Shown one piece after another: positions 19,512 through 52,046 of a DNA stretch of 64,000 nucleotides; the stretch's first letter is position 1; each line of letters begins with the position of its first letter. The notes under the pieces were generated by a model. It made no database searches, had not been told where the DNA came from, and worked only from the letters and a program-made list of their open reading frames with translations. The stretch spans positions 16-64,015 of IMG/VR virus record IMGVR_UViG_3300021339_000007. One strand, given 5' to 3'. The position numbers were made by a program, and so were the translations under genes. The DNA is from a virus (lineage: Duplodnaviria > Caudoviricetes).

Positions 19512-20069
19512 ATGACCGATAAACAGCAGTCCTTTGTATCCGCCTACCTTGGCCGCGCTCATCTTAATGCCACGGAAGCTGCTCGAATAGCCGGGTATCG
19601 TTACCCGAATGTCCAGGGCGCGCAGCTTAAGAAGGAGCCGGAAATCGCTGCAGCGATTTCCGCGAAGCTCAAGGAGCAGTCCCTTGGTGCAGACGAGGTT
19701 CTTCGCATTCTCAGCGACCAGGCGCGTGGAACTATTCAGCACTTCATCAAGGTCACCGGAGACGAAGTAACGATCGATCTTTCAACTGAGCAGGCCAAGG
19801 CGAACCTACATTTGCTGAAGAAGGCGAAGACAAAGCGCCGTTCGGGTGGTACGAAGGATGCGCCCTGGGAGGAGATCGACACAGAGCTGGAGCTACATGA
19901 TCCGCAGGCCGCAGCGGTCCAAGTCGGCAGACACTATGCAATGTTCACCGATAAGACAGATGGGAGCGTAACGGTAAACGGTGTCATCGGCTACGATATC
20001 ACCCCGCCAGACGGCAACGGACCTGGCGACGATCACTCCACAGAAGAAGATCGACTTCCGCCCGCATAG
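19512..20069 (+). CDS. terS: Terminase small subunit
   Basis: MTDKQQSFVSAY..NATEAARIAGY. Confidence 0.9.
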   Translation: MTDKQQSFVSAYLGRAHLNATEAARIAGYRYPNVQGAQLKKEPEIAAAISAKLKEQSLGADEVLRILSDQARGTIQHFIKVTGDEVTIDLSTEQAKANLHLLKKAKTKRRSGGTKDAPWEEIDTELELHDPQAAAVQVGRHYAMFTDKTDGSVTVNGVIGYDITPPDGNGPGDDHSTEEDRLPPA

Positions 20070-21336
20070 AGGGCAGTGGCGAGCGTGGAACAGTACCCGG
20101 CGGTTCATTGGCGTCATTGCTGGAACGCAGAGCGGAAAGACCGCGTTCGGTCCGCATTGGCTTTATCGCGAGATCCAGCGTTGCGGACCGGGCGACTATC
20201 TGGTTGTAACACCAACTTTCTCGCTGCTCGAAAAGAAGGCGCTGCCGGAGTTCCGTAAGCTGTTCGGCCGATGGCTGCAACTCGGCACTTACGTTGCAAG
20301 CCCGGTCCGAAAATTCACATTCAGCGAATACGGCAGTCGACGTACCTTCGGCAGTTACGACCCCGATAAGCCGACGGTCGTCTTCTTCGGATACGCGGAG
20401 GATCCGGAGAGCCTTGAGAGTGCCACCGCCAAGGCGGCCTGGCTGGATGAGGCCGGACAGAAGAAATTCAAGCTGGCGTCGTGGGAAGCGATCCTGCGGC
20501 GCCTTTCGCTTGCGCAGGGTAGGGCGCTGATCACCACAACGCCCTACGATCTCGGATGGCTCAAACAGCAGATATACGATCGGTGGAAGCACGCGAAGGC
20601 GACAGGGGCGCCGTGCGACTACGACATCATCAATTTCGACAGCACCGAAAACCCGATCTTTCCAAAAGCTGAGTTCGAACGCGCACGGCGGGAGTTGCCG
20701 CCGTGGAAGTTCGACCTCTTCTACCGCGGGATTTTCACGCGGCCTGCCGGACAAATCTACGACAGCTTCATCGACGAGTATCAGCCGGTTGGTCACAAGT
20801 GTGTGCGGTTTGCGCTACCCGACCATTGGCCTCGCTTCCTCGGTCTGGACTTCGGCGGTGTGAATACTGCGGGCATGTTCTACGCTCAGGAGCTCGGGGC
20901 AGACAAGCAACCTACCGGCAGACTGTTTGCCTATCGAGAATACAAAGCCGGGGGACGAACGGCGAAGCAGCACGCGGCCGCGCTTCTGGAAGGCGAGCCG
21001 ATGGTTCCGGTCTGTGTCGGCGGGTCGGCGTCCGAAGGGCAGTGGCGAGATGAGTTTCGCGCCGGTGGATTGCCGGTTATGGCGCCGCCGATCAAAGACG
21101 TAGAGATCGGTATCAACCGTGTCTACGGCTGCCATAAGCAGAACTTGATCATTGTGTTCGACGATCTCTCCGGATATCTGGATATGAAGGTGCGATATAG
21201 CCGCGAGCTGGATGATGCCGGCGAGCCTACGGAGAAGATCGAGGACAAAGAGACGTTTCACTTCCTGGACGCGGAACGCTATATCATTTCGCGACTGGTG
21301 CGCGGTCCGGTCGTTCATGAGATACAAATGGCATGA
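19981..21336 (+). CDS. terL: Terminase large subunit (start uncertain)
   Basis: Walker A GTQSGKT, Walker B WLDEAG, TTTP, RNase H-like GLDFGG, H.LDAERY. Confidence 0.92.
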   Translation: MSSATISPRQTATDLATITPQKKIDFRPHRGQWRAWNSTRRFIGVIAGTQSGKTAFGPHWLYREIQRCGPGDYLVVTPTFSLLEKKALPEFRKLFGRWLQLGTYVASPVRKFTFSEYGSRRTFGSYDPDKPTVVFFGYAEDPESLESATAKAAWLDEAGQKKFKLASWEAILRRLSLAQGRALITTTPYDLGWLKQQIYDRWKHAKATGAPCDYDIINFDSTENPIFPKAEFERARRELPPWKFDLFYRGIFTRPAGQIYDSFIDEYQPVGHKCVRFALPDHWPRFLGLDFGGVNTAGMFYAQELGADKQPTGRLFAYREYKAGGRTAKQHAAALLEGEPMVPVCVGGSASEGQWRDEFRAGGLPVMAPPIKDVEIGINRVYGCHKQNLIIVFDDLSGYLDMKVRYSRELDDAGEPTEKIEDKETFHFLDAERYIISRLVRGPVVHEIQMA

Positions 21337-21481: not shown

Positions 21482-22927
21482 ATGCCGAACAACTTCGCAA
21501 CCAGCGTCAAGAGCGCGTTAGCCGCGGGCATCAAATCGGTTTTCGGTCTTAGCGCGGGCGGCAACGGCATTATCGGCAATGCCGGTTACGGGTGGCAGGG
21601 CGGCTCTACGCCGTTCAGCCGCTACGCCGGATCCGCGGTCGATTGGGCCAAGGTCACTGGTGATCTGGCGAGCAACGCGATTGCGCTGACGTGCCTGAAC
21701 ATCATTTGCGACAACTACGTTGCGGCACGGATCAAGGTCGAAGAGAAAAGCGACACCGAGGATAAGTTCGAAGCGATCGAAGATCACCCGCTGCTGCCGA
21801 TCCTGAAGAAGCCCAACCCGTTCTACTCCTGGAACTATCTCACAAAGGGCATCCTGGCTTCCATGCACGGTCAGGGAGACGGGTACATCGGGATCGAGCG
21901 CGATGCCTACGGAGTCCCTGCTGAGTTATACTGGCTTCCGTATGGTATTCGTCCACGCTATGCCGAAGACGGCCGCAAGCTGATCGGATGGATCTACGCG
22001 CAGCAAGGCGGCCGGGAGCAGAAGGTCCCGCTTCGTGACGTGATCCATATCCCGATGGGCGCGAATCCGAAGCGGCCGGGATTCGGTATGCCGGTCTCGG
22101 AGGTGCTGAAACAGGATCAGTACAGCCTGCAGCAAGACGGCAACTACCGCGCCAACATCATGCGCAATAACGGCGCTATCGGTGTAATCATCAGCCCGAA
22201 GCAGATCAAAGATCAGTACGGTGAAATCACCCAAGCGAGGGCGGATGCGCAAGCGGTAGTCGATCTGTGGAAGTCGAAGACACAGAACGACAAAGCAGGT
22301 GATCCGATGTACCTGGATTATCCGCTGGATGTGGTGTTTCCGAAGAACAGCCCGCAGGATCTCGCGATTAACGAGATGATGGATCGACCGGAGCACAACA
22401 TCTGTGCCGTGATGCGAGTCTCGATCCTGCTGGTCGGCGCCTACGGCGGGCGCCATGCGAAGACCTTCGCCAACTACGCGGAGGCGCGCCAGTCCCTCTG
22501 GGAGGAGTGCCTGCTGCCGCTGCAGAGCATCATCTCCGCGGAGTTGACCACGCAGCTCCTGCCGCAGCTCGGAGGCGACGCGGAGAAGCAGCGGGTCGCT
22601 TACGATGTCGGAGGCATTCGCGCGCTGCAGCCGGACCTCGATAAGCTGCATGAGCGTATCCGCAAGGATTTCGAGGCGAACATCATCGACCTCTATACCG
22701 CGGAGATCGAAAGCAAGCGGGTTCCGGATGAGAAGCACAAGGGCCTCTACAGCTTCATGCTGCCCAAGGTGACGGATACCGGGCTGGTCGATGGCGGTGT
22801 ACTCGCATGGATTGGTGTCGAACAGAAGCCGCCGGAACCTGAGCCCGTGCCGATGATGAACGGCAACGGGACCGGTAAGCCCTTAAATGGTGCGAATCCG
22901 AAGATGATAGCCGGGAAACTGAGTTAG
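21482..22927 (+). CDS. HK97-like portal protein
   Basis: HPLLPILKKPNP, GDGY..IER, DVIHI; follows terL. Confidence 0.9.
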   Translation: MPNNFATSVKSALAAGIKSVFGLSAGGNGIIGNAGYGWQGGSTPFSRYAGSAVDWAKVTGDLASNAIALTCLNIICDNYVAARIKVEEKSDTEDKFEAIEDHPLLPILKKPNPFYSWNYLTKGILASMHGQGDGYIGIERDAYGVPAELYWLPYGIRPRYAEDGRKLIGWIYAQQGGREQKVPLRDVIHIPMGANPKRPGFGMPVSEVLKQDQYSLQQDGNYRANIMRNNGAIGVIISPKQIKDQYGEITQARADAQAVVDLWKSKTQNDKAGDPMYLDYPLDVVFPKNSPQDLAINEMMDRPEHNICAVMRVSILLVGAYGGRHAKTFANYAEARQSLWEECLLPLQSIISAELTTQLLPQLGGDAEKQRVAYDVGGIRALQPDLDKLHERIRKDFEANIIDLYTAEIESKRVPDEKHKGLYSFMLPKVTDTGLVDGGVLAWIGVEQKPPEPEPVPMMNGNGTGKPLNGANPKMIAGKLS

Positions 22928-24176: not shown

Positions 24177-25523
24177 ATGGGATACGTTATTCCAGATGCT
24201 ATCAAAACCTCGGTCGAAGAGGCTGTTAAAGGCAAATCGCTTGCTCAAGTCGTGAAATTGCGCGACGCGAAGATGGCGGAACTCGGTTCGGTCTTCGAGA
24301 AGAGCGACACCGGTCAGATGGACGAGAACGGCAACAAGATCTTCGACTTTACCAAGGGCGGCTATGCGCCGACCGAGGTCAAAACGCGCAACGACGAACT
24401 CACGGTGTTCGGTGAGAAGGTCGATGAGCTGAAAGCGAACGACGAAGCCTATAAGGCGTACCAGGCGCAAGTTCGCGAGCAGGGACGCGTCAGCAACCAG
24501 TTTGCCGGCGGCAACAACGGAGCGCAGCAGGACGACAAGGACAAGAACTCCTACGAGCGCCGAGAGGGGATCAAGTCGCTTGCAGCGGAGTTCGGCGCGA
24601 ACGAAGCCTATAAGTCCTGGAAAGAGAACAAGCAGGGCTGCGTCATCGAAATCAAGGACGGAGTTCCGGCTCTCCTGGACGGCGTAAAGACCACGATGAC
24701 GACCACGGCCGGCTATACGCCGTATGTGCCGCCGGATATGCGGGTAGTCTTGTCCGCTCAGCGCCGCATCATGGTTACGGACCTCATGCCGAACGTGGAT
24801 GTGAACAGCCAGTTCGTCGCGTTCGTCCAGGAGACAACCTTCACCAATAACGCGGCGGCCGTCGCTGAAGGCGCAACCAAGCCTGAGAGCGCACTGGTCT
24901 ACACTCGTGTGACGGCGCAAATGGGCAAGGTCGCGACCACGCTTCCGGTCACTCGCGAGCAGTTGATGTTCGTGAACGCAATGGAGGCGCTGCTGAAAAA
25001 TCGGCTCGGCTTCCAGGTGAGGTTGGAACTGGAGCGAGAAGTCCTGCTGGGTTCCGGATCCTCGCCTGAAATGCGCGGTATTCAGAACACGGTCGGTATC
25101 CAGACGCAGGCGCAGTCCACCGACGACGTGTTCACCGCAATACTCAAGGCAATCACCAAGGTCAACTCTACGGTCGGAATGGCGGATGCTTCCGCAATCG
25201 TCATGAACCCCAACAACTGGCTGACGGCCCGAACGGTCAAGGATACGACCGGCCGGTTCATTCTGGGTAATCCCGACGAGATCGGGCCGCCCCGGGTTTG
25301 GGGTCTGCCGGTCGTGGCGACTATCGCCGAGACTGCCGGCACCGCGCTGGTAGGGGACTTCCAGACCTATTCCGAGCTTGACCGCGGCATGGACCTGACG
25401 GTGGAACTCGGCTACATCAACGATGACTTCACCAAGAACATCGTCCGGATGCTGGCCGAACTCTTCGCAGTCGTCCTGGTCTATCGCCCGACCGCCTTCT
25501 GCACCGTCACCGGCCTGGCCTAA
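24177..25523 (+). CDS. HK97-fold major capsid protein
   Basis: VAEGATKPES, LLGSGS, MNPNNW..KDTTGRFI, WGLPVV, VYRPTAF. Confidence 0.95.
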   Translation: MGYVIPDAIKTSVEEAVKGKSLAQVVKLRDAKMAELGSVFEKSDTGQMDENGNKIFDFTKGGYAPTEVKTRNDELTVFGEKVDELKANDEAYKAYQAQVREQGRVSNQFAGGNNGAQQDDKDKNSYERREGIKSLAAEFGANEAYKSWKENKQGCVIEIKDGVPALLDGVKTTMTTTAGYTPYVPPDMRVVLSAQRRIMVTDLMPNVDVNSQFVAFVQETTFTNNAAAVAEGATKPESALVYTRVTAQMGKVATTLPVTREQLMFVNAMEALLKNRLGFQVRLELEREVLLGSGSSPEMRGIQNTVGIQTQAQSTDDVFTAILKAITKVNSTVGMADASAIVMNPNNWLTARTVKDTTGRFILGNPDEIGPPRVWGLPVVATIAETAGTALVGDFQTYSELDRGMDLTVELGYINDDFTKNIVRMLAELFAVVLVYRPTAFCTVTGLA

Positions 25524-26780: not shown

Positions 26781-27479
26781 ATGCCTAACCCCGGCTCAGC
26801 AGACTTGCAGCGGTTCCTGATCGCCTCCGGCTTGTTCAGCAACCCGCCGACCGCCGCGCAGAAGTATATGGATTTGCGGGGCGCGATGGATGCGGCGAAA
26901 GAGGAATTCGAGCGATTGACCGGCTACCTGCCGTTCCTCAGCAGTGGCGAGCAGGAGACGCGCACATTCGACGGGCCGGAAAGCTCGATCCTGCAGCTGC
27001 GTGCGGGTCTGCTGTCTCTCACCAGCCTGGTCATCAACACCGTGACGTATACCGAGAATTCCCAGTTCGTGCTGCAGCCGACCGACGCGCCCGGGCGGAG
27101 GCTGCCGTACACCTATGTCGACTTCGGCAGCGGCTGGCAGTCCGGCGGATACGGGCTGGGCTCCGATTTCGCGTCGGGCTTCGGTGCGGGATCGGCGGTC
27201 GGTCTGGGCTATGTCGGCGGCGGTCGGCGCGCGATCAGCATCACCGGCGTCTGGGGATACTGCGCGACGCTGCCGGCGGACGTGAAGCAGGCATTGATTT
27301 CGTTCGGAGCGGCCCGGGTGGCGCCGCGGCTGATGCATAGTGTGACAGGCGGCTTGAAACAACAAAAGGTCGGCAATGACAGCTGGACGTGGGGCGAAAA
27401 CTTCTTCGGCGGGCAGATGAGCGCCTGGGACGCTGAGTTCCAGGAGGCCGTGAGAAAGTACAGGTTATTCCGGCTATGA
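26781..27479 (+). CDS. Head-tail adaptor
   Basis: FERLTG..ETRTFDG, ITGVWGY..LPADVKQA. Confidence 0.75.
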   Translation: MPNPGSADLQRFLIASGLFSNPPTAAQKYMDLRGAMDAAKEEFERLTGYLPFLSSGEQETRTFDGPESSILQLRAGLLSLTSLVINTVTYTENSQFVLQPTDAPGRRLPYTYVDFGSGWQSGGYGLGSDFASGFGAGSAVGLGYVGGGRRAISITGVWGYCATLPADVKQALISFGAARVAPRLMHSVTGGLKQQKVGNDSWTWGENFFGGQMSAWDAEFQEAVRKYRLFRL

Positions 27480-28877: not shown

Positions 28878-29753
28878 GTGACAAACTATTCCGATTGGGG
28901 CGGTCCCGGCTCCGTCATCCTGAAGAAGACGCTCGGAAGCGGGCCCTTCACCTTGAACTCGCAGGTGACGATCCCCTCCGCGATCGTGCAGCCCTTCAAG
29001 CCGCTGAACACGACTTATCTGCAGGCGATCAATGCGGCGCAGGGAACCTCGCTGTCCGTGGCTGGCAACCAGACCCCGGCGATCGCGCTCCGAACCTATT
29101 ACAAGCCCACGTGGGGGACCGCGGCGCTGCTGAAATCGCTCATCCAGTTCCGTGACACGACCACTTTCTATACAGACCAGTTTGCGATGCAGGTCAAATC
29201 GCAGTATCGAACGCGGAAGTTCTCGAAGGGGCGATGTACGGGCCTTACGATCACGCATACCAAGCAGGGCAACCAGCCGGGGCCGATCATCGTCGATATG
29301 GGCTTCGTGTTCATCTATGGCGATCTAGGCGGCGCGCCCGACGATCCTTCGCCTCCGACGTTTTCGGCTGCAGCGACCGATGCGGGTCAGGCGACGAATG
29401 CGGGGCAGGTCGCGTGGGCCACGGCTACGCAGGTAAAGAGCTTCCAGCTGCAGATGAACTGCGTCCAGGAATATCAGTTCTCGGATAACAACACGCTCTT
29501 TGCTGACGATATCGCAACCGGACCTCCGGACGGCGGGCTCGCGCTCGTGCAGTCAGACAGCTACACCGCAGCGCCGACCACAACGGACACGCTGAGCCTC
29601 GGCGGGGTAGGCGCGGGAATAGCTATCGCTCTCAACTTGGACCTGCACACGCCGTTCACGCCGCAAGACGGCGGTTTTATCAAATACAACAGCGCGTTCA
29701 AACTTGCCAACTTGACCACCGGCGGAATTCCGTGGGACATCACGGCACTCTAA
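28878..29753 (+). CDS. Major tail tube protein
   Basis: 291 aa, beta-rich; directly before the frameshifted chaperone. Confidence 0.7.
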   Translation: MTNYSDWGGPGSVILKKTLGSGPFTLNSQVTIPSAIVQPFKPLNTTYLQAINAAQGTSLSVAGNQTPAIALRTYYKPTWGTAALLKSLIQFRDTTTFYTDQFAMQVKSQYRTRKFSKGRCTGLTITHTKQGNQPGPIIVDMGFVFIYGDLGGAPDDPSPPTFSAAATDAGQATNAGQVAWATATQVKSFQLQMNCVQEYQFSDNNTLFADDIATGPPDGGLALVQSDSYTAAPTTTDTLSLGGVGAGIAIALNLDLHTPFTPQDGGFIKYNSAFKLANLTTGGIPWDITAL

Positions 29754-29762
29754 GGAGAAGAC

Positions 29763-30299
29763 TTGAAGCAGGCGAAGATTTTTATTATCAATAATGGCGA
29801 AGACCCATACGCGCTCCTAGATTCCGACGCCAACTTCTATGCCGTTGCTGACTGGGAGCTAAAGACGATCAAGAAACCCCCGGAGGAATTGGAGAAGGAC
29901 ACGAACGGAAAGGGTCGATGGCTGACCCTGGAACTCAAACCGGCAAAGTCGGGGCTTGACCGCGAAGCGAAACAGCGGTGCCTGGTTGGGGATGCACTGA
30001 CAGGGTTCAGGAATGACACTCTGCTGTTGCCCGGCAACCAGTTCGAATTGTTCGTTTCGAGTTGGCGGTGGGCAGACCGCGACGGCGACGACCCTCCGAA
30101 GCTGAAGGCCCCAACCGTTGATGTATTCGAATCCTTACATCCGAACGTAGCGGATAGGATCAGAATGACGCTGGATTGGCACATCCGGCCTAACATCTCG
30201 GTAGACGCTGATTTTTTTTCCGGATTGAGCGATCTGTCCACGCAGTCCTTGGAATCGAACCCTGCCAAATCCGAGCCGACGACCTCCACCCCGGAGTAA
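29763..30299 (+). CDS. Tail assembly chaperone (gpG-like)
   Basis: Position; T8 slippery run at 30212-30219. Confidence 0.7.
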   Translation: MKQAKIFIINNGEDPYALLDSDANFYAVADWELKTIKKPPEELEKDTNGKGRWLTLELKPAKSGLDREAKQRCLVGDALTGFRNDTLLLPGNQFELFVSSWRWADRDGDDPPKLKAPTVDVFESLHPNVADRIRMTLDWHIRPNISVDADFFSGLSDLSTQSLESNPAKSEPTTSTPE

Positions 30300-30511
30300 G
30301 GCTGTTCCTGGAAGAGCGGGCCGGAATGCCGCCGTTCTACCGTTCTAGGGAAAACATGGACGTGGAGACGCACGAGGTTTACCTGCATTGCCGGGGCATG
30401 GAGTTAGAGGCGCAGCAGGCAGACTCACCTCAGGAACCGGCACAGGGCGAAGTCCCAGCGCCGGACTTGTTCGACCTGGAGGCATATGGGCCGATGAACG
30501 TCGGGCTTTAA
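30212..30511 (+). CDS. -1 frameshift extension (gpGT-like)
   Basis: The -1 frame is open from the T run (FRIERSVHAV...) into MPPFYRS... and ends at TAA 30511. Confidence 0.7.
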   Translation, partial: FFFRIERSVHAVLGIEPCQIRADDLHPGVRLFLEERAGMPPFYRSRENMDVETHEVYLHCRGMELEAQQADSPQEPAQGEVPAPDLFDLEAYGPMNVGL

Positions 30512-30555
30512 ACGCCTTTGCCCGTGGGAGGAAAGCGTTACCGGGGTAACAGTTT

Positions 30556-30846
30556 TTAGCCTTCCCAGACAAGCGGACGCCAATCGGGAGGAATGATACC
30601 ATCTCGAATAGCGTTCGAGATCATGCCTCTATGCCGAAAATCAGCGCGGAGAACATGACAGCGGCGGCATAAAGTTCGCAAGTTTGATAGTTTGTTCGTC
30701 GCATTCTTGCCTGATTGGATGTGGTCAATGTGGCAAGTGTCGATTTCTAAGGGCGTCTGACAGCGGACGCACTTTCGCCCGTCGCGCTGCCAGACTTTAA
30801 CTCGAATAGCGTCCCATATTTCTTTCGGAGGTCGTTTTTTAGGCAC
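30556..30846 (-). CDS. HNH endonuclease directly downstream of pentamer array 1
   Basis: RDGRKCVRC..HIDHI..N..SNLRTLCRRCH; probable GTG start at 30846. Confidence 0.88.
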   Translation of the reverse strand: MPKKRPPKEIWDAIRVKVWQRDGRKCVRCQTPLEIDTCHIDHIQSGKNATNKLSNLRTLCRRCHVLRADFRHRGMISNAIRDGIIPPDWRPLVWEG

Positions 30847-30847
30847 T

Positions 30848-30950
30848 CTTTCAAACCCTTGTCTCGCCTTGCCTAACCCGTACACGCCAAGGCCCGCCGT
30901 AACTCGCCACGCCGGACCGTGTCAAGCCGGACCCGGTAGTACCCTAGCCC
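30848..30950 (-). ncRNA. Pentamer array 1 (GGY/GNY + NN), putative guide RNA
   Basis: gg|gct ag|ggt ac|tac cg|ggt cc|ggc tt|gac ac|ggt cc|ggc gt|ggc ga|gtt ac|ggc gg|gcc tt|ggc gt|gta cg|ggt ta|ggc aa|ggc ga|gac aa|ggg tt|tgaaag. Confidence 0.8.
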
Positions 30951-30957
30951 AATTGAG

Positions 30958-31563
30958 CTAGGATTCTGGAAGGATGTCAAACGATTCGACCGTGAAGCGG
31001 CCAAACCCTACCGACCGACCATCGGCCAAGCCGACAAGTCTGCCGGCATCGATCAATACAGTTTCCATCTGAGTTCTATTGACGACCGTCTTATCAAACA
31101 GCATATGGAATGTAGTTTCCCAACCGGGAGCGGCCGCGATCCGATAGCGAACGTTTCGGCCTTTCGTTGCGGGGTTCTTTACACTACAAATGTGCATGTA
31201 AACCGACTGGCTTGCCTCGGTCGGGATTGGTTCAGGCGGTACGACCAAGGGTTTGCCGTCGCGAGTAAACAGGATACGCTCATCATCGATCTGGAGCGTA
31301 GCAGCGACAGCGGTCTGAATGGAACCGCGTCCCGACTTGGTGTATTTCGCTGCATCACGACACATGCCGAAAATGTAAGTCGGATGCACAAACAACTGCC
31401 TTTCTGCGGTCATAAGGACCGTCTTTTTCCATTCTTCGGGGTCGTTACCCGCAACGCCGGTTCGCTCTTGCTTTTCGAGCGGAATCGCGTCGGGGCCGAA
31501 CTGGTGCCAGAGAATAGACCGAGTACCTTTGATTCTGACGCTTGCCTTGATGACGTTTGCCAT
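30958..31563 (-). CDS. Stand-alone Cas7/RAMP-like protein
   Basis: N-terminal strand VRIKGTRSIL; P..IFGM helix; C-terminal Gly-rich loop GLADGRSVGFGRFTV typical of RAMPs. Confidence 0.7.
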   Translation of the reverse strand: MANVIKASVRIKGTRSILWHQFGPDAIPLEKQERTGVAGNDPEEWKKTVLMTAERQLFVHPTYIFGMCRDAAKYTKSGRGSIQTAVAATLQIDDERILFTRDGKPLVVPPEPIPTEASQSVYMHICSVKNPATKGRNVRYRIAAAPGWETTFHMLFDKTVVNRTQMETVLIDAGRLVGLADGRSVGFGRFTVESFDILPES

Positions 31564-31610
31564 GAGAATCTTTCTGCCTGCCTACAATGCCGACAGGCGG
31601 GCGGTTTCGA

Positions 31611-31916
31611 CTAGATCAGTAATCCTGCGGCGCGGCAAGCATTGATAGCCTGCACCCTGTTGCAAACAGCGAGCTTCTTGTAAGCGTTCGATATGTGATA
31701 ATCGACCGTCCTTTTGCAAACGTATAGCTGATCGGCAATTTCCTTGTTGCTCAATCCAGTAGCGACAGCAGTAAGAACGACGACCTCTTGACGGGTAAGA
31801 GGCAAACCAGTCTCATCTTTTACTGATGGAACGTGAGGCTTACGGGCATTGGTCGGGCGGGCCTGAAGCCCCGCGAGTGACGTACAGTTCTCGAAGCGTG
31901 TAGCGATATTATTCAT
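31611..31916 (-). CDS. LuxR/GerE-type HTH regulator
   Basis: LTRQE..GLSNKEIADQLYVCKRTVDYHISNAYKKL.V.NR. Confidence 0.9.
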   Translation of the reverse strand: MNNIATRFENCTSLAGLQARPTNARKPHVPSVKDETGLPLTRQEVVVLTAVATGLSNKEIADQLYVCKRTVDYHISNAYKKLAVCNRVQAINACRAAGLLI

Positions 31917-32187
31917 TGGTGTCTCTTTCCGGCCGACCATCGACCAACCGTATACTGTGGATTAGGTCCGCCATTTTTTCAGCGCAATAGGCATCGATTA
32001 CCGCAACAAGGGCGGCATAACTAGCGTCTACGGCAGCATCCGCCAACCGGACGCGCAACGCCTGCTCATCTTGATAGTTGCGAGTCCTCATCCTTGCGCG
32101 CCGTACCTCGCAGTTGATATGCTCTCCTGCGGCGGTCTGAAATGTCGGGGACTCGCTGATCGATGTGCAGTACTTGTTATCCGGCAT
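31909..32187 (-). CDS. Hypothetical protein
   Basis: AAGGA RBS; overlaps the LuxR gene start. Confidence 0.55.
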   Translation of the reverse strand: MPDNKYCTSISESPTFQTAAGEHINCEVRRARMRTRNYQDEQALRVRLADAAVDASYAALVAVIDAYCAEKMADLIHSIRLVDGRPERDTNE

Positions 32188-32204
32188 TGTCCTTACCCTT
32201 CCTA

Positions 32205-32558
32205 TCAGGCAGCAAGGGTAAGGACAAAGGACCGACCTCGATAGGTCGGCTCTATCGTGCACGAGCAGCGGCAATCGCTGGACTCGCAGAAATCGCAGAA
32301 GTCTTCGGGCGAGGTTTCCGGCCTGCGGGCCATGTGTTCTGCGATTGCCCGTTCCTGGCGCTCGATCTGGTTCGTACGCGCTTCGCGGAGTTCGGCATTC
32401 GCAGGATCACATTCGCTGAAGCGATCCTTGAGGATTTGAAGGTAGCTCTGCATCGATTGCAGGTTCTCTGCCCAGGTGGCGGGCTGGACGGTGCCGCGAT
32501 GGTGGCCGCGATAATCGCGGGATCGAACACGGGCAGAAAGTGTGGTTGCGGTTGGCAT
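32205..32558 (-). CDS. Hypothetical protein with C-terminal Cys cluster
   Basis: AAGGAG RBS; CDFC..C.C.C. Confidence 0.6.
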   Translation of the reverse strand: MPTATTLSARVRSRDYRGHHRGTVQPATWAENLQSMQSYLQILKDRFSECDPANAELREARTNQIERQERAIAEHMARRPETSPEDFCDFCESSDCRCSCTIEPTYRGRSFVLTLAA

Positions 32559-32661
32559 TTCGTTGGTCTCCTTTGCGGTAAAGGGTAAACTGAAAGCGTC
32601 CCTTTGCGGGATGCCGGGAGGTGGTCTCAACACCGACCGGCTTATTTAGTTTACTGTGTAT

Positions 32662-32690
32662 ATTATACACCTATATTGTGTATACGTCAA
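32662..32690 (-). promoter_or_regulatory. Sigma70 promoter driving the Cas7-like/HNH operon
   Basis: TTGACG-N17-TATAAT. Confidence 0.8.
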
Positions 32691-32748
32691 GCCCGAATCC
32701 GGTGTTTTCAACATTTATTTTTGTGTATTTGTGCTGTATACTATCAGC

Positions 32749-32937
32749 ATGGAGAACACTGAACAGTCTGCACGCAAACGAGGCCCGGTGCCGGGGCCAA
32801 AAACAGAACGTTATCAGGTTCTTTTAGACCCAGACGCAGCCGATTGGGGAAAGCGGCAACCGGGCGGCCTTTCAGAACTGCTTCGTAAGCTTTTGAGCGA
32901 TGCGTACGAAAAAGCGAATTCTAGTCCATCGGGCTAG
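32749..32937 (+). CDS. Small ribbon-helix-helix-like regulator
   Basis: RGPVPGPKTERYQVLLD..GLSELLRKLL; TATACT just upstream suggests a leaderless transcript. Confidence 0.65.
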   Translation: MENTEQSARKRGPVPGPKTERYQVLLDPDAADWGKRQPGGLSELLRKLLSDAYEKANSSPSG

Positions 32938-33027
32938 AATGAACGGGCCATGGTGAGCCAAGGTTAGGTCTGGTCCGGCGGGGTCTGGCTTGGCGCGGCG
33001 GGGCAAGACAAGACAAGGGTTTGAAAG
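32931..33027 (+). ncRNA. Pentamer array 2 (GGY/GNY + NN), putative guide RNA
   Basis: g|ggc ta|gaa tg|aac gg|gcc at|ggt ga|gcc aa|ggt ta|ggt ct|ggt cc|ggc gg|ggt ct|ggc tt|ggc gc|ggc gg|ggc aa|gac aa|gac aa|ggg tt|tgaaag; same ends as array 1. Confidence 0.8.
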
Positions 33028-33089
33028 CAGGAATTGAATAGGTGCAGAGTCGAATAGCGCGTCAACTCGGTTGCATTAGAGAAGACGCG

Positions 33090-33278
33090 ATGAACACACT
33101 ACTTTGGGTTGTCGTAGGATTGTTGATATCCGCAGGTGGTATAGGCCTACTCTTCGCCGTACTGCTCGCTATGAACACTAACGAATCGGGCGCGGTAGTT
33201 GCATTCATTATCGGTGCGGCCGGCGTGGTGTCGTTGTTCACAGGTTTAATCGGAGCATTTATACTGCACCGGAAGTGA
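33090..33278 (+). CDS. Small two-TM membrane protein
   Basis: Two hydrophobic segments. Confidence 0.6.
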   Translation: MNTLLWVVVGLLISAGGIGLLFAVLLAMNTNESGAVVAFIIGAAGVVSLFTGLIGAFILHRK

Positions 33279-33305
33279 AGCGGTTTATCAGGTTCACAAG
33301 GAACA

Positions 33306-33336
33306 GGAGCGATCTCAATTAGAGATCGCTCCTTCT
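33306..33336 (+). terminator. Hairpin, probable terminator
   Basis: GGAGCGATCTC-AATTA-GAGATCGCTCC. Confidence 0.55.
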
Positions 33337-33522
33337 AGTTTGGCGGTGAAGCTTGCGCAAACGAGTTGAAGTTGAATTAGACATAAGCGAAGCTGCCCAT
33401 CGGCTTCAGACACTTATCTGCTCTTCCTGATCCTGCTTAGAAAATAACAGTGCGCGATAATTTGCAGGCTGCCACCCCGTCCGAGATTAGGGCGGGTTTT
33501 TTGTTGCCTGCTCGGAACAATC

Positions 33523-36500
33523 ATGGCTCGTAAAGTCGTTCAGGTAGATTTAGACATATCGGCTGCAGTTGCGAAGGTGCAAGAACTTGCAGCGCAACTC
33601 GACAAGCTGCGAACGGAGTCTAACATCTCGATCGGGGCACAGGGCTTGCCTGGAAACGGCTTAATGGGCACGTTTTCAAGCTCATCCGGTCCCGGCATCA
33701 ATCCGGCCACGACCGGCGGCGTCACCATGTCCGGTGGCAGCGCGTCGGTCTCCGTACCTGGAAACGTCGCAGCAGGGCCGCCATCTCTGGGGGTCTTCGG
33801 ATCGGGATTCGGAACCGGGCAAATGAACATGGTTTCCGGCACGGTTGCGGGCACACCTGCTAACGGCCGGGTTCCGTCGGATAGCGAATACGATTTCAGT
33901 GTGTCGTCTGGGTCCGCGCCGGATCAGCCTGGTTGGGCGGACGGCGAACAGTTCGCATATGTGAGAGGGCACTTTCGGCGTCACCCGCGCACGGGCAGAG
34001 CAGGTGGAGCAGGAGCACCTCCACCTCCATCGGCTACCGTATTTACCGAAGCCAGTGCGCCTTCTGATGATGACATGGGCGCACCCCCCATGCCGGTCCC
34101 TCCAACCGGCGGGGCAGGTGGGGGTGCTGCTCGTCGGCGTCGGCGCGCACGCGGTAACAATAACCGAGACGATGATGATTTCAACTTCGAGGACTACATC
34201 GGCTTTCGTACGGCCCGAGAGTTGGCACGTGGTGCGTCAGACGTTGCGAACGAATATACACGGTACACGATTTCGGGAGAACCCAATCCGCTAGCCCTGG
34301 GACAGAGCGCAGGTCTTCTAGGGGGAGGACTCTTTGCAACCGGACTGATTGCAGGCGGGATGGGGCTAGGGCCAGCGGGCATGATCGGTGCGATAGCGGC
34401 CCCGCTTATTGGCGCGGGCGTTAACGCATTTCAGGCCCCCGCCATTCAGCGACAGAACATTGCGGCATCCTTTTCTGTTTATGGTGCAGCTTCAGGGCAA
34501 GATCCCAATGGCTTAGCGTCCGGCGCGGCTCAGATCGCCTCGCAGCAGAATTCAATGTTCTATGCGCAAGGCTATGCGCAGAACGTTGCGACCGGTAACC
34601 CGGTGCGCGACTTTATCGGCGGCGCCTGGGCGACAGCGGATAACTACCTGCGTCGATGGGGAATGCACGTTGGTACCGACCAGATCAGCGCGCAGGACGT
34701 TGCTGCAATAGAACAGGCGGTTGGTTCGGCTGCATCCTCTGTTGGAGAGACGTTGACGCCTGAACAGTTGAGAAGTGCTTCTCAGCGATACGTGAGCATG
34801 GGCGGCCCAACTGGCAAGCCACTGTCTCAGGCTTCTTCTGCGGCAGTGTCGCGGTTGGGAGAGAGCGGCGGTAACCTGTTTTCGCTCTCATTGCGGGTTG
34901 GGGCGGATGCTACAAAGCTCGCAGCGAATATGCTTGGAATGCCCTTCGACGTCGAACAGGGTCGAAAAGATGCATGGGATTATCAAATAGGACAATCCCA
35001 TATCGCAGGCGCGGAAGCGATCGCATCCGGTCTTGGATCAGAATACGAACGCTCCGCCTTCAGCGGTAAGACCACGTTTGCACGCCGGCCAGAATTCGAT
35101 CGGATGCAGGCGGCACTGAGGGCTGATTATGACCTGACGGCCAGCGAGTATAACCGAATGCAGTCCGGCCCGCAGCGTGACAGTGTAGAAGCGAAGGGGC
35201 TATTCGCGCGTGGGCAGCAAGACCTTCTCCAGATAGATCGAAACCAAGCGCAACGATCCGAAGGGATTGTTGGAGACATCAGCGCAGCAGGGCGGGCAAA
35301 CCTTGCGGCGGCGAACTATCAGACGAGTATGGCAAACCTCTTCGGGGGTGAGGCGGACTTGAGGCGGGCCGGGGCTTCCACATTCGCAACGCTCATGGAT
35401 ACGGCGAATCGCTTAGAGGCCACAATCGGACTGCCGGGACAAACCGCGCAGCAGATGTACGATCAGCGCGCACTGGTCTCCGCAACCAGAGGCCAAGCTT
35501 TGCAACAGCGCACGCAACTGGTAGATGCGGGGCAACAACGGCGCTTCTTGTCTCAGGACGTGAATGTCAGCGTCTTCGCGGCGGACCTTACCGCTTCTGA
35601 GATGTTCGGAACCGATTCGCAGTTGGGTGCTACATTTGCGGCGGCGGTTGGAAGTCAAGATTTTATCGCAAACGATGCGTTCACTGCAAGCCAAAACCAG
35701 AGTGCCTCAGTTGAGCAAAAGGCACGGGACCAAGTTCGGAGTGCGAATGCCAGACAGCAAAGCCTGAATCTTCGGGCGCGGAGTCTGGACGTATTGCTCT
35801 CTCGGATTGGTGGCCGTGCTTCCATAGCCGAAAGTGACGCGTCCAACGTGCTGCTCGGGGCGGCCTACGGCGACGCCGGGGATGTAGAGCGAGCGGGCGC
35901 AGGCTTCATTGGAGCATTAGGTTCGGAAAGAGCGTCCCTTCAGGATCAGCTTCGCCAAGGCGGATTGACGGTTGAGCAGGACATTCGGCTGCGAAGCCGG
36001 GTTTCCTCGATTGAAGGGCAACAGATACGCGCGCAAATCGACGTAAGGGACACTGTGCTTGGCAGAGTAGAGACCACTGCCAACCTTGCGAACCAAGCAG
36101 CCTCCAACGAACTTAATCGCTCACTACGCCTTGGCACGGGAAGTGACGTTCGGAGCGCATCGGGCGGAATGCTTTCCTCCCTTGGCAATGAGTATTCCAG
36201 GCTGCAGGAGCAAATCGACCGAGGCGGATTGACCTTCGATCAAAGAAGCCGCGTACAGGAGCGGCAGCAGAGCATCGGTCGTTCGGTCTTCGACATTGGT
36301 CAAAACGCCATTGATGAATCAATCAGGCGCGATGATATGTCAGGCTTCGGCTTGGCGTCGATAGAGAACAGCGCCGCACGAAGGATAGCCTCTTTGATGC
36401 CCTACGGCTCAGGCGGCAGATTGAGTGCAGATGTTCGAACCATCCGTACTAATCAACAGCAACTCGGCGTCCTTCAACAACGGGAAGAGCAGTTGCGCCG

Positions 36501-36999
36501 AAGTGGAAACTTGTCTCCTGAGCGGCTGTCTTCCATCCGGGAGCAAGAGGCAAACCTTGGCGTGGAAATCGCGTCCGGCATTGCCGGCTTGACGGAAAAT
36601 GTGGCCGACTACCTTCCGGGTCTTTCTGCAGGCCGTGGCGCGAACTACTCTATGTACGACAGTCTCCAGCTTGCGGCGCTACGTGTCAATCGAACCGGCT
36701 CCAATATCCGGTCCTTCGGAGCGATCAACGGCGCCCAGGCGGCCCGGCAAGCGCATGCGTGGGACCAATTGTCCGGAGGCATGATCTCCGGCGGCCCTCA
36801 TTCGCTGACTCAGGGAATCAACCAGGGCCGCGGGACAGGCGCCATGGAGATCCTTCTGACGCAGATCCGCGATACGCTGCAACGCATCGGCAGCGGCAAT
36901 ACCGGCTCTACGCAAAGAATCGGCGAATCTGCCGGACAGGCGGCGGGGCAGATCAGTCAGCGCGATGTTGGATACGGATACGGCGGGCGCAAGCTCTAA
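33523..36999 (+). CDS. Tape measure protein
   Basis: 1158 aa, Ala/Gly/Gln-rich with helical repeats (GGLT.EQ); longest gene, at the tape-measure position. Confidence 0.75.
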   Translation: MARKVVQVDLDISAAVAKVQELAAQLDKLRTESNISIGAQGLPGNGLMGTFSSSSGPGINPATTGGVTMSGGSASVSVPGNVAAGPPSLGVFGSGFGTGQMNMVSGTVAGTPANGRVPSDSEYDFSVSSGSAPDQPGWADGEQFAYVRGHFRRHPRTGRAGGAGAPPPPSATVFTEASAPSDDDMGAPPMPVPPTGGAGGGAARRRRRARGNNNRDDDDFNFEDYIGFRTARELARGASDVANEYTRYTISGEPNPLALGQSAGLLGGGLFATGLIAGGMGLGPAGMIGAIAAPLIGAGVNAFQAPAIQRQNIAASFSVYGAASGQDPNGLASGAAQIASQQNSMFYAQGYAQNVATGNPVRDFIGGAWATADNYLRRWGMHVGTDQISAQDVAAIEQAVGSAASSVGETLTPEQLRSASQRYVSMGGPTGKPLSQASSAAVSRLGESGGNLFSLSLRVGADATKLAANMLGMPFDVEQGRKDAWDYQIGQSHIAGAEAIASGLGSEYERSAFSGKTTFARRPEFDRMQAALRADYDLTASEYNRMQSGPQRDSVEAKGLFARGQQDLLQIDRNQAQRSEGIVGDISAAGRANLAAANYQTSMANLFGGEADLRRAGASTFATLMDTANRLEATIGLPGQTAQQMYDQRALVSATRGQALQQRTQLVDAGQQRRFLSQDVNVSVFAADLTASEMFGTDSQLGATFAAAVGSQDFIANDAFTASQNQSASVEQKARDQVRSANARQQSLNLRARSLDVLLSRIGGRASIAESDASNVLLGAAYGDAGDVERAGAGFIGALGSERASLQDQLRQGGLTVEQDIRLRSRVSSIEGQQIRAQIDVRDTVLGRVETTANLANQAASNELNRSLRLGTGSDVRSASGGMLSSLGNEYSRLQEQIDRGGLTFDQRSRVQERQQSIGRSVFDIGQNAIDESIRRDDMSGFGLASIENSAARRIASLMPYGSGGRLSADVRTIRTNQQQLGVLQQREEQLRRSGNLSPERLSSIREQEANLGVEIASGIAGLTENVADYLPGLSAGRGANYSMYDSLQLAALRVNRTGSNIRSFGAINGAQAARQAHAWDQLSGGMISGGPHSLTQGINQGRGTGAMEILLTQIRDTLQRIGSGNTGSTQRIGESAGQAAGQISQRDVGYGYGGRKL

Positions 37000-44305: not shown

Positions 44306-45868
44306 ATGACAATTGCCTTTGATGCAGTCAGCGGCGGCTCGGTATCAGGCACCGCACTCACCGTGGCTCATACGTGCGCGGGCAGCAACCGGCTGCTTCT
44401 GTCGAGCATCTTCGGCGACTCTGCAGATGTGATCACGGGGGCCACCTATAACGGCCTCGCGATGACGCTGGTCGACAAGCTGTTCGATGGCGCCAGCAGC
44501 AGGTTCCATTACTGTTTCGCTCTCCTAGCTCCCGCGACCGGCACGCACAATATTGTCGTCTCGGCGAGCACATCGATCATTATGGGCGCTTCTTCTGCGT
44601 CCTACACAGGTGTTCTGCAGTCCGGCCAACCAGAAGCCTTCGCTCATAACTCCAACCCGTCTACGGCGTCGCTGGCAACCATAGTAACGACACTTACGGA
44701 CAATGCCTGGACCGTCTATTGCGCTCATGCCGAGGGGGGGCATCCGGCAGCAGGCGCCAACTCAACTTTCAGGGGCGACGACGGCTTTGGCGGGGTCGGT
44801 ATTTCCGCCATTATGGACAGCAACGGCCCGATATCGCCCGCTGCTGCGCATTCCATGACGTTTACGGCTACCAGTGGCCCTTGCATCGGGATCATCGTTT
44901 CGATCGCGCCTTTAGGTGCTGCGCTTTCACCCGGCACGGCTTCGCTCACTTCGGCGACCAATACTACGCTCACGCTGAACGGAGGCACCGCGCTTGGCGG
45001 CACGGCTCCCTATACTTACCAGTGGTACCGATCGACCACAGCCAACTTTACTCCAGGCGCCGGGAACCTGCTGAGCGGAGCGACCAGCGCAACGCTTGCC
45101 GATAGCGCATCTCTTGCGGCGGACACTCCCTATTACTACATCAGGCGCGTTACGGACAACGTAGGGGCGACCGCCGACACGAACCAGGTTGCAGGTGTGC
45201 TCAAAGCTGCGCCGATCATTGTGTTCTTTCTTGGAGACAGCATCACCCTTGGAACCGGAGGCCCGAACCCTCCTGCAGACAGCTTCCCGGCCCTGTTTGC
45301 AATCGAGCTGGCGCATCTTTACAAGCAGCGCGCGGTCACGGCGGTCAACGGTGGGATCGGATCGACAAGTTCAACCGATTGGGCCACGGACGCAGGCGGA
45401 ATACTCACCGCTGCCAGAGCAGCTGCGACCGGGGCGGGCGCCACTCACGTGATGATCATGCTGGGCGCAAACGATGCGGCGGCTCACATTTCGGCGGCGA
45501 CGTACAAGAGCAACCTTCAAACTATTGCGAACGCCTTCATCAGCGATGGCAAGAAGGTGATGATCAACTATCCCAGCTACATCCCGGCCGGAGCCAATGG
45601 CGGCGCGACGGATGTAGCCGCGACGGAGAGCATGCGCAGCTACCTCGCTCAGATCGACTCGCTTGTAGATAACGTGAACTATCTGCAGAGCGACAAGATC
45701 GCTTATAACTGGTTTGTCGATCACCAGAGCGAGGTCCAGACCGACCAGACGCACATGCTGGAAGCGGGTCATCAATCTCTGGCAATCATACAGGCGAGGG
45801 CTTTCGATCGGTCGGTGCTTCAGGTCGTTGCAGCGGCAGGCACAGCTTCGGGATTTGTGGAGGGTTAA
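44306..45868 (+). CDS. Virion protein with SGNH/GDSL esterase domain
   Basis: FLGDSIT, G.G, LGAND, DQTH blocks. Confidence 0.8.
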   Translation: MTIAFDAVSGGSVSGTALTVAHTCAGSNRLLLSSIFGDSADVITGATYNGLAMTLVDKLFDGASSRFHYCFALLAPATGTHNIVVSASTSIIMGASSASYTGVLQSGQPEAFAHNSNPSTASLATIVTTLTDNAWTVYCAHAEGGHPAAGANSTFRGDDGFGGVGISAIMDSNGPISPAAAHSMTFTATSGPCIGIIVSIAPLGAALSPGTASLTSATNTTLTLNGGTALGGTAPYTYQWYRSTTANFTPGAGNLLSGATSATLADSASLAADTPYYYIRRVTDNVGATADTNQVAGVLKAAPIIVFFLGDSITLGTGGPNPPADSFPALFAIELAHLYKQRAVTAVNGGIGSTSSTDWATDAGGILTAARAAATGAGATHVMIMLGANDAAAHISAATYKSNLQTIANAFISDGKKVMINYPSYIPAGANGGATDVAATESMRSYLAQIDSLVDNVNYLQSDKIAYNWFVDHQSEVQTDQTHMLEAGHQSLAIIQARAFDRSVLQVVAAAGTASGFVEG

Positions 45869-51602: not shown

Positions 51603-52046
51603 ATGTACGCAATATTGGGCGCAGACAGCGCGGTTCCGTTCTTCTACCAGCAGGCCAACCTGAAGACCCCGGCCGACAAGCCGGATCTATTCACCTGGAT
51701 CAATGTGAGCAACACCGGCCCGAACGGCTCTCCGCAAGGCCCGGTTCAACTCGGCGAGGCCTGGCCCGGCATCTCTTTCGGCGGCGCTCCGGTATCGCTG
51801 GACTTCCCTTCCGAGGGTGAGTTCGTCATCCAGGCGGCAGGCGGATACGGCGCCCAAGGCTTCGGACAGGCGGCCACTGCTTTGATTAAGGTGCATGCCG
51901 ACCGGACGATCGAGTTTGTCATTCGGGACGGCGTCGGAGCGACCCTGCTGGCCGGCACGCACTCCTACGACAGCATGGCGGAGTATTGGGACAGGGGCCT
52001 GGGCGGAATGATGGCCGATGAGGTCTCGGTCGCTTCGCCGGTCTAA
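51603..52046 (+). CDS. Hypothetical protein
   Basis: AAGGAG RBS; last gene of the late operon. Confidence 0.6.
   Translation: MYAILGADSAVPFFYQQANLKTPADKPDLFTWINVSNTGPNGSPQGPVQLGEAWPGISFGGAPVSLDFPSEGEFVIQAAGGYGAQGFGQAATALIKVHADRTIEFVIRDGVGATLLAGTHSYDSMAEYWDRGLGGMMADEVSVASPV

Follow-up and report, generated by a model that had tools for sequence, protein, structure and literature searches.

A phage-borne VIPR locus with an HNH gene and two putative guide RNAs in a soil virus genome

The stretch of DNA examined here, hereafter the window, comprises 64,000 nucleotides, almost the whole of a virus record of 64,015 bp (IMG/VR IMGVR_UViG_3300021339_000007). Between positions 30556 and 33027 it carries a gene for a 201-residue protein (vipr), a gene for a 96-residue HNH endonuclease, and two arrays of five-nucleotide units, nominally a GGY triplet followed by a variable dinucleotide (NN), which we call vrRNA-A and vrRNA-B. 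This locus belongs to a family that has already been published, the systems called Viral Interference Programmable Repeat (VIPR), reported in 2026 (10.64898/2026.04.26.720920), and is no new class. As described there, a VIPR system consists of a Vipr protein of ~20 kDa, vrRNAs made of GGY/NN pentamers with a constant tail, and one accessory gene; most are viral, and they find their targets by a code that skips one nucleotide after each pair. Judged by its sequence, the locus fits this definition at every point. We observed homology to Vipr, the RAMP fold, pentamer arrays in excess over chance, a conserved vipr–vrRNA–HNH module and a viral context. As a whole, the locus is very probably a phage-encoded VIPR system working by the steps proposed below.

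What kind of protein does vipr encode? The gene (30958..31563, minus strand, with its TAG stop at 30960–30958) specifies a minimal RAMP protein with the glycine-rich G-loop GLADGRSVGFGRF and the C-terminal end LVGLADGRSVGFGRFTVESFDILPES; a first-pass annotation, made from the letters alone, had reported a gene with a RAMP-type glycine loop at just this place. Searched singly against the sequences of the PDB, the protein matched chain D of entry 36pp, ‘SUSP1 Vipr protein’ (202 residues), at E 1.7e-4. With a profile of 30 family sequences (profile A1) the match improved to E 6.7e-9 over residues 5–190 of 202, and 36pp_D was the sole PDB sequence at E ≤ 1; the name VIPR, which the first-pass annotation had suggested, is thus correct. 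In the cryo-electron microscopy structure of SUSP1 Vipr, the GGY bases are held by H17, R138, D177, W178 and R179 (10.64898/2026.04.26.720927). These residues align, through profile A1, with H20, R141, D181, G182 and R183 of the window protein. Four of the five (H20, R141, D181 and R183) are conserved, and in A1 there is little or no variation at any of the five window positions. We conclude from these alignments that the 201-residue protein is a Vipr homologue.

The predicted structure is that of a RAMP protein. The AlphaFold model (pLDDT 87.5, pTM 0.84) contains, in order, a strand at residues 4–13, a helix at 61–74, a β-hairpin at 121–144 that bears R139–Y140–R141, a helix at 163–177, the G-loop at 178–189 and a strand at 190–198, built around an RRM core. 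A Foldseek search of the PDB, a comparison with Cas7 and Csm3 that the first-pass annotation had proposed, returned 189 matches at E ≤ 0.001. Chains of Csm complexes stood at the top (9g9a_D, E 1.6e-9), and the matches included Staphylococcus epidermidis Csm3 (5yjd_B, E 8.9e-8) and 6ifn_F; chain E of 6IFN was the Cas7 query of the VIPR discovery paper (10.64898/2026.04.26.720920). The model and the Foldseek matches together give the minimal RAMP fold of RRM core, G-loop and thumb. The earlier description of a lone Cas7/RAMP-like protein therefore holds for the fold, but the protein is Vipr rather than CRISPR Cas7, and neither the RAMPs family nor any other in Pfam matched it. Among the PHROGs it matched phrog_4652, of unknown function, at E 4.9e-9. 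A tblastn search of 50,697 GenBank phages gave no match, and the ESM Atlas includes an identical 201-residue protein, the nearest clusters being unnamed and 85–100% viral. The sole part of the model of low confidence is the segment of residues 21–40 (31446–31503, minus strand; pLDDT about 50–60). Invariant residues are abundant in and near this segment (P28, L29, E33, T35, G36, V37, G39, P42, E44 and W45), which may correspond to the helical bundle of SUSP1 Vipr that meets the target DNA.

We now turn to the arrays. The 103-nt vrRNA-A (30848..30950, minus strand) begins with GGGCTAG at 30950, separated from the vipr stop codon by the seven bases CTCAATT, and ends with GAAAG at 30848, its 3′ end being GACAAGGGTTTGAAAG. 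From the GGT at 30943 it runs through 18 pentamers in unbroken phase; GGY stands in 11 of them, and the remaining triplets are TAC, GAC (twice), GTT, GCC, GTA and GGG. With only 11 canonical triplets, vrRNA-A is strictly 5-periodic yet not strictly GGY, so that the position, length and periodicity given in the first-pass annotation stand while its more regular account of the triplets does not. The dinucleotides are, in order, AC CG CC TT AC CC GT GA AC GG TT GT CG TA AA GA AA TT. On the other strand lies the 97-nt vrRNA-B (32931..33027, plus strand), which has the same GGGCTAG start, about 15 in-phase pentamers when re-phased by eye, and a 3′ 16-mer, GACAAGGGTTTGAAAG, identical to that of vrRNA-A. 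Here too the earlier account holds for place, start and end, but only 10 of the 15 triplets are GGY and the GGGCTAG stands one base out of pentamer register relative to vrRNA-A; the two lengths differ by 6. Its variable dinucleotides are AT GA AA TA CT CC GG CT TT GC GG, followed by AA AA AA TT. No pseudoknot was seen in the 3′ tails of either array.

Could such arrays arise by chance? With a criterion of at least six GGY in eight consecutive pentamer slots, 11 positions were found in the window, in three clusters, as against none in each of 10 shuffles of the window. Two of the clusters are vrRNA-A and vrRNA-B. The third, at 51733–51777, was rejected as an array because it lies in a coding frame. 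At a score of 30 Tandem Repeats Finder reported neither array, as expected where only three of five bases repeat.

Each array is preceded by a stable hairpin of 10 bp whose 3′ arm is the GGGCTAG. Hairpin A (30941..30964, minus strand) includes the vipr stop codon and has a folding energy of −15.1 kcal/mol (z −4.7); hairpin B (32918..32940, plus strand) includes the stop codon of a 62-residue open reading frame and has −12.0 kcal/mol (z −4.9). In each case none of 200 shuffles was as stable, and the two hairpins differ by paired changes. Such 5′ hairpins are no general feature of the clade, the upstream folding energy being −6.6 as against −6.8 in controls. At the other end, the conserved array 3′ end (…CAAGG…) lies 8–10 nt ahead of the HNH start codon in the window (30848–30860) and, for example, in two relatives (L011:2800-2830 and L028:4200-4225). 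Since it reads like the ribosome-binding site of the HNH gene, guide tail and translation signal overlap.

The accessory gene, which is vap-like in its place beside vipr, encodes a 96-residue HNH endonuclease with the pattern CxxC...DH...N...CxxCH (30556..30846, minus strand; PF01844, E 1.4e-8). Its GTG start at 30846 lies one base past vrRNA-A. The first-pass annotation was right to place the gene directly after the array, but the start is not the GTG at 30885 chosen by the open reading frame finder, which gives a 109-residue frame (30556..30885): the homologues listed have 94–130 residues, mostly 95–98, and an N-terminus MPKKRPP that matches GTG 30846. In an alignment of the 665 homologues the positions C27, C30, D42, H43, N52, C61, C64 and H65 are invariant. 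A profile of the family reached, in the PDB, the stand-alone HNH protein 5h0m (E 1.3e-4), Cas9 of Actinomyces naeslundii (4ogc, 1.1e-3) and IscB (9k2z, 1.3e-3).

If vipr, arrays and HNH gene form one system, do they occur together elsewhere? The vipr family comprises 1,834 proteins at E ≤ 0.001 in 90% clusters, with 252 representatives at 50% identity. We compared 79 related loci, 40 from IMG/VR and 39 from GTDB genomes, the latter from Armatimonadota, Abditibacteriaceae, Chloroflexales, cyanobacteria, Acidobacteriota, Bacillota, Actinomycetota, Chlamydiota and Verrucomicrobiota, about nine phyla. In 77 of the 79 loci, vipr and an HNH homologue are neighbours on one strand; of the other two, one ends 298 nt past vipr (L068) and one has none (L037). 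GGY/NN arrays occur in 63 of the loci (64 by a cruder window scan), the co-occurrence that the first-pass annotation had named as its check. Thirty-one loci have them between vipr and HNH, and 37 have them after HNH; in 7 they are found upstream on the same strand, in 6 within 4 kb on the opposite strand, and 16 loci lack them. The window shows the ‘between plus opposite’ arrangement. The 123 arrays called have a median of 14 units (range 6–26), with GGCaa GGCaa GG or GGCaa GACaa GG as a frequent ending that resembles the window's. Across the 103 arrays with at least eight GGY, from relatives and window, position 1 is G in 95%, position 2 is G in 93% and position 3 is C or T in 93%, figures that are biased by the method of calling arrays. 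The NN positions 4 and 5 hold 0.08 and 0.04 bits and are near-random.

The surroundings of the module are not conserved. None of 11 open reading frames of the island and its flanks in the window had a homologue in the 79 loci, and from this we conclude that vipr, vrRNA and HNH move as a cassette. Three head genes of the phage (terminase, portal and major head protein) gave one weak match each in the same loci. What surrounds the cassette in bacterial genomes was surveyed with a hand-picked set of 143 of the 236 flanking open reading frames, short of a complete survey, compared with the PHROGs: there were matches to tail sheath, tape-measure and tail-completion proteins (L061, L062, L069, L070), to integrases (L065, L066, L077, L097) and to primases (L087–L089, L093, L096), as well as to FtsK-like proteins and transposases. 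The clade studied is found largely on viral contigs and prophage-like elements. In four of the bacterial-genome relatives the cassette sits in a tail module, as it does in the window (L069:2193-8646, L070:5001-9089, L061:8306-8812 and L062:2759-3217); that of L069 lies between tail sheath and tape measure, much like the window.

Against what might the two guides be directed? Under the 1-nt-skip code a guide follows codon positions 1 and 2 of its target gene. Neither guide has a self-target above background in the phage record or in 40 loci. In other genomes (five scans of IMG/VR with 8-NN seeds and one metagenome scan) there was no match of at least 80% to either, except for one of vrRNA-B, at 21 of 22 variable positions, in the homologous contigs L050 and L051. 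The 8-NN seeds of vrRNA-A gave 2, 5 and 21 matches in IMG/VR, the best full match being 21/28; those of vrRNA-B gave 4 and 9. Since no seed match is convincing, the true targets would appear to lie outside the collections scanned with these exact seeds.

The match of vrRNA-B to L050/L051 includes 10 consecutive exact dinucleotides and is in frame with codons 11–20 (IEKYLPGLFA) of a gene of 493 codons that directly follows a portal gene of the SPP1 type, and the bases that are skipped stand at wobble positions. Against a true target speak the GC content, 51% there and 58.8% in the window phage; the lack of any match of vrRNA-A in the complete 64,675-bp L051 record (two 10-NN windows, at most 3 mismatches); and matches of vrRNA-B over 20 bases, equally exact, in unrelated metagenome DNA. 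This minor head gene is a lead only, not distinguishable from chance. The metagenome matches, four from a 10-NN seed of vrRNA-B and representing two independent sequences, were rejected, as both look like chance: one lies in DNA of low GC content whose examined frame is riddled with stops, the other in what by eye is an acyl-CoA-dehydrogenase-like gene. Also rejected was a match to the phage's own tape-measure-like gene (36604–36636, plus strand, ADYLPGLSAG), which at 15/18 in the core and 18/22 as shown equals the background of the local database. It comes close to the 80% threshold of the VIPR paper (10.64898/2026.04.26.720920). No relatives of the C-terminus of this gene were found in IMG/VR.

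For vrRNA-A, the 21 IMG/VR matches of its middle eight dinucleotides are all in frame with the motif [FL]TPV[DE]TG[FL], which is absent from the window phage in any frame. Small proteins contain nine of the 21. When seven of those nine were compared with Pfam, four matched HK97-gp10_like, one above the cut-off and three just below, and the other three matched nothing. HK97-gp10-like tail genes are accordingly a lead for the target of vrRNA-A.

A clearer case comes from a relative. In L010 (4628–4700, plus strand) the guide dinucleotides GA GG AG TC AT GG TT GG are codon positions 1 and 2 of the Vipr G-loop DGRSIGFG. Compared with the 79 vipr genes, this guide matches 16/16 positions in seven (L076, L077, L088, L089, L093, L094 and L099), 15/16 in ten and 13/16 in its own; against L076 the match reaches 20/20 past a one-base bulge in the guide. 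In appearance this is a guide against VIPR that leaves its own locus alone, and it echoes the vipr-targeting guides in the available text of a study of phage–satellite conflict (10.64898/2026.10.15.759431). One of 103 guides is clearly anti-vipr. In the local database, six guides have a best match of at least 0.86 with a skip of one base, and none with a skip of zero or two. Together, the L010 guide and this excess support the published code in the HNH clade.

How does the locus compare with known systems? That of SUSP1, a type II system, consists of Vipr, vap1 and four vrRNAs (PDB 36pp; 10.64898/2026.04.26.720920, 10.64898/2026.04.26.720927). Like it, the window has a Vipr of about 200 residues (201 and 202) with homology over the full length and the GGY contacts H, R, D and R retained, vrRNAs of about 100 nt whose GGY/NN pentamers are followed by an unvarying 3′ end, and a two-gene core on a phage. 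Unlike it, the window has an HNH nuclease where SUSP1 has the DNA-binding vap1, a short shared 16-mer in place of a pseudoknot tail, and a stable hairpin ahead of each array; the identity of the two Vipr proteins is about 25–30%, as estimated by eye rather than computed. The arrays have 15–18 units, where 9–16 were reported for VIPR. In the published text, types III–V bear enzymes, and an HNH domain is found in the representatives of types II, III and VII in fig. S21 (10.64898/2026.04.26.720920). Because types II and VII are called DNA-binding, the window system is probably the published HNH-bearing type, by this reasoning type III. With the enzyme-bearing types it shares an HNH accessory gene beside vipr, and many of its relatives have a single vrRNA, as published for some systems; it differs from them in that the window copy lies inside the structural-gene region of a phage and that viral contigs of IMG/VR are the source of 40 relatives. 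An independent survey gives 99 clusters of VIPR-like arrays in its accessible text (10.64898/2026.10.21.760802).

With Csm3/Cas7 of CRISPR type III (9g9a_D, 6ifn_F and 5yjd_B) the protein shares the RRM core, the loop rich in glycine and the thumb hairpin at TM-scores of 0.5–0.6, but the identity is 10–17% and a Pfam RAMPs match is lacking. The period of the guide is 5 nt, compared with 6 nt in Class 1 complexes. Of the parts of a Class 1 system, the 64-kb record has no CRISPR array, no cas1 or cas2 and no set of several RAMPs; a second RAMP, Cas10 and Cas6 are likewise absent from the window. Across the 64,015-bp record Pfam gave no match to Cas1 (PF01867) or RAMPs (PF03787) and Tandem Repeats Finder no CRISPR-like repeat, which bears out the first-pass annotation in finding no conventional CRISPR. 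The HNH protein shares the ββα-metal core with the HNH domains of Cas9 (4ogc) and IscB (9k2z) and with 5h0m. It is a free-standing protein of 96 residues, not a domain of a guide-binding protein, and the matches are weak and confined to the core.

By homology to SUSP1, the system would operate as follows. Vipr protomers would assemble along each vrRNA, one per pentamer; each would flip out and hold its GGY and display the NN; and the resulting filament would read double-stranded DNA by the 1-nt-skip code (target NNxNNx...). A polymerizing RAMP that grips GGY and presents NN is what the first-pass annotation had proposed, and that proposal gains support from the homology of the window protein to SUSP1 Vipr, for which the same mechanism is published. 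The HNH protein may then nick or cut the target that the filament has bound, and so do more than silence it. The vipr–HNH transcript would supply vrRNA-A, and a divergent transcription unit 2 kb away vrRNA-B. The system probably serves in competition with other mobile elements of the same soil host.

Several points weigh against this account. Non-GGY triplets make up 7 of 18 in vrRNA-A and 5 of 15 in vrRNA-B, and perturbed GGY motifs are described as abolishing silencing in SUSP1 (10.64898/2026.04.26.720920). W178 of SUSP1, which stacks on the second G, is a glycine (G182) in the window protein. For neither guide did the scans yield a convincing natural target. No RNA run is listed as carrying the window stretch, and we infer the transcription, processing and Vipr binding of both arrays. 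None of the computed results ties the HNH protein to Vipr physically or shows cutting, and the nuclease action of the enzyme-bearing types is, in the published text, only predicted (10.64898/2026.04.26.720920).

Might the system then only silence, the HNH gene being an ordinary phage HNH gene, of the homing or the packaging-associated kind, that is no more than a companion of vipr? All VIPR activity reported from experiment in the available text of two preprints is repression (10.64898/2026.04.26.720920, 10.64898/2026.10.15.759431). Phages commonly carry small HNH genes; the window HNH matches 14 PHROG HNH families and one terminase-small-subunit family, and 3 related loci have a homologue of portal, terminase or capsid no more than 4 kb away. 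However, a mere companion would hardly be the same-strand neighbour of vipr in 77 of 79 loci from about nine phyla that have no other gene in common with the window, nor enclose the vrRNA with vipr in one transcription unit in 31 loci, and in the window 9 kb separate the HNH gene from that for terminase, which is on the opposite strand. We regard a silencing-only system as unlikely. The relation of vrRNA-B to vipr admits another reading, in which it would not work with the window's own system but would serve other Vipr proteins, or compete for them, as a ‘solo’ guide or decoy, vrRNA-A being a decaying copy. Phages with only solo vrRNAs are described in the accessible part of the conflict study (10.64898/2026.10.15.759431), and vrRNA-B, which is on the opposite strand from vipr and 2 kb away, has a divergent promoter-like site of its own, while vrRNA-A has the more degenerate triplets. 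But the 5′ hairpin arm and the 16-nt 3′ end common to both arrays argue for one cognate protein, opposite-strand arrays accompany vipr in the six loci counted above, and both arrays are identical in contigs from soil metagenome runs of three studies, the identity extending over 30500–33100, although a run among them may be the source of the record. A solo or decoy role strikes us as improbable.

It could also be held that the arrays are not guide RNAs at all but glycine-rich coding sequence or a DNA-level repeat, array A, for example, belonging to the longer HNH frame from GTG 30885. That frame does cross array A, tblastn matches in some loci begin at query residues 1–7, inside the array, and the GGY-rich cluster at 51733–51777 is indeed coding. 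A 5-nt period is nevertheless incompatible with a reading frame, the HNH homologues start at the position of GTG 30846, and array B lies downstream of a stop codon; in relatives the arrays stand before, after or upstream of the genes, with near-random NN. We give this explanation almost no credence, and return to the VIPR system with guides.

What does the locus add to the family? Only the VIPR systems of SUSP1 and P. fulva have so far been studied in depth. The window offers a compact HNH-bearing example of 2.5 kb with a predicted promoter of its own and two guides, in a near-complete soil phage genome, and the vipr–vrRNA–HNH module recurs in at least 79 loci in about nine bacterial phyla. 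It is a convenient place to ask whether a VIPR filament directs DNA cutting, and it bears on whether nuclease types of VIPR belong to viruses too and not to host defence islands alone; if the clade is type III, its carriage by viruses and prophages deserves a proper count. A more far-reaching idea, which we put forward as tentative and somewhat doubtful, is that nuclease-armed VIPRs are primarily viral weapons rather than domesticated host defences: Vipr and vrRNA would bring a free HNH to the DNA of rival phages, with guides against codon positions 1 and 2 of conserved structural motifs (for vrRNA-A, [FL]TPV[DE]TG[FL], as a signature of HK97-gp10-like tail-completion proteins) and with the 5′ hairpin, of which the available text gives no description, as a handle that marks guides. 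Guides on these codon positions would leave synonymous mutation no escape.

The rest of the record is that of a tailed phage. PHROG matches identify an integrase (12120–13895), large terminase (19981–21336), portal (21482–22927), major head protein (24177–25523), head–tail adaptor (26781–27479) and minor tail protein (44306–45868), and also a DnaB-like helicase and a DNA methyltransferase. The 1158-residue tape-measure-like gene (33523–36999) has no family match and is named from its size and position. The VIPR locus forms an island at about 30520–33500, between the head–tail genes and the tape-measure-like gene, and is mostly antisense to the structural genes. Rfam gave nothing at E ≤ 1 in 29500–34000, and PADLOC generic HNH and helix-turn-helix matches only.

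On the minus strand the order is promoter-like site, three overlapping open reading frames, vipr, vrRNA-A and HNH. The three (142, 121 and 109 residues; 31611..32633) are co-oriented with vipr and may be co-transcribed with it; the 109-residue product is a LuxR/GerE helix-turn-helix protein (PF00196, E 4.1e-18). None of the three had a homologue in the 79 related loci. On the plus strand follow the 62-residue open reading frame (32749..32937), vrRNA-B, a 78-residue membrane open reading frame, hairpins and a terminator-like site, a hairpin with a T run (33476..33496) that closes this unit ahead of the tape-measure-like gene. The 62-residue frame, whose stop codon lies within the GGGCTAG of vrRNA-B, has a weak match to DUF2239 only (E 1.2e-3, below cut-off); read by eye, its product is ribbon-helix-helix-like. 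It diverges from the minus-strand genes out of the same AT-rich region (32640–32750), seemingly a control region between the two units. At the head of the vipr/vrRNA-A/HNH string lies a candidate sigma-70-like promoter, TTGACG-17-TATAAT (32662..32690, minus strand), identified by its agreement with the consensus at 11 of 12 positions. Around it are direct TTGTGTAT(A) repeats that resemble operator sites.

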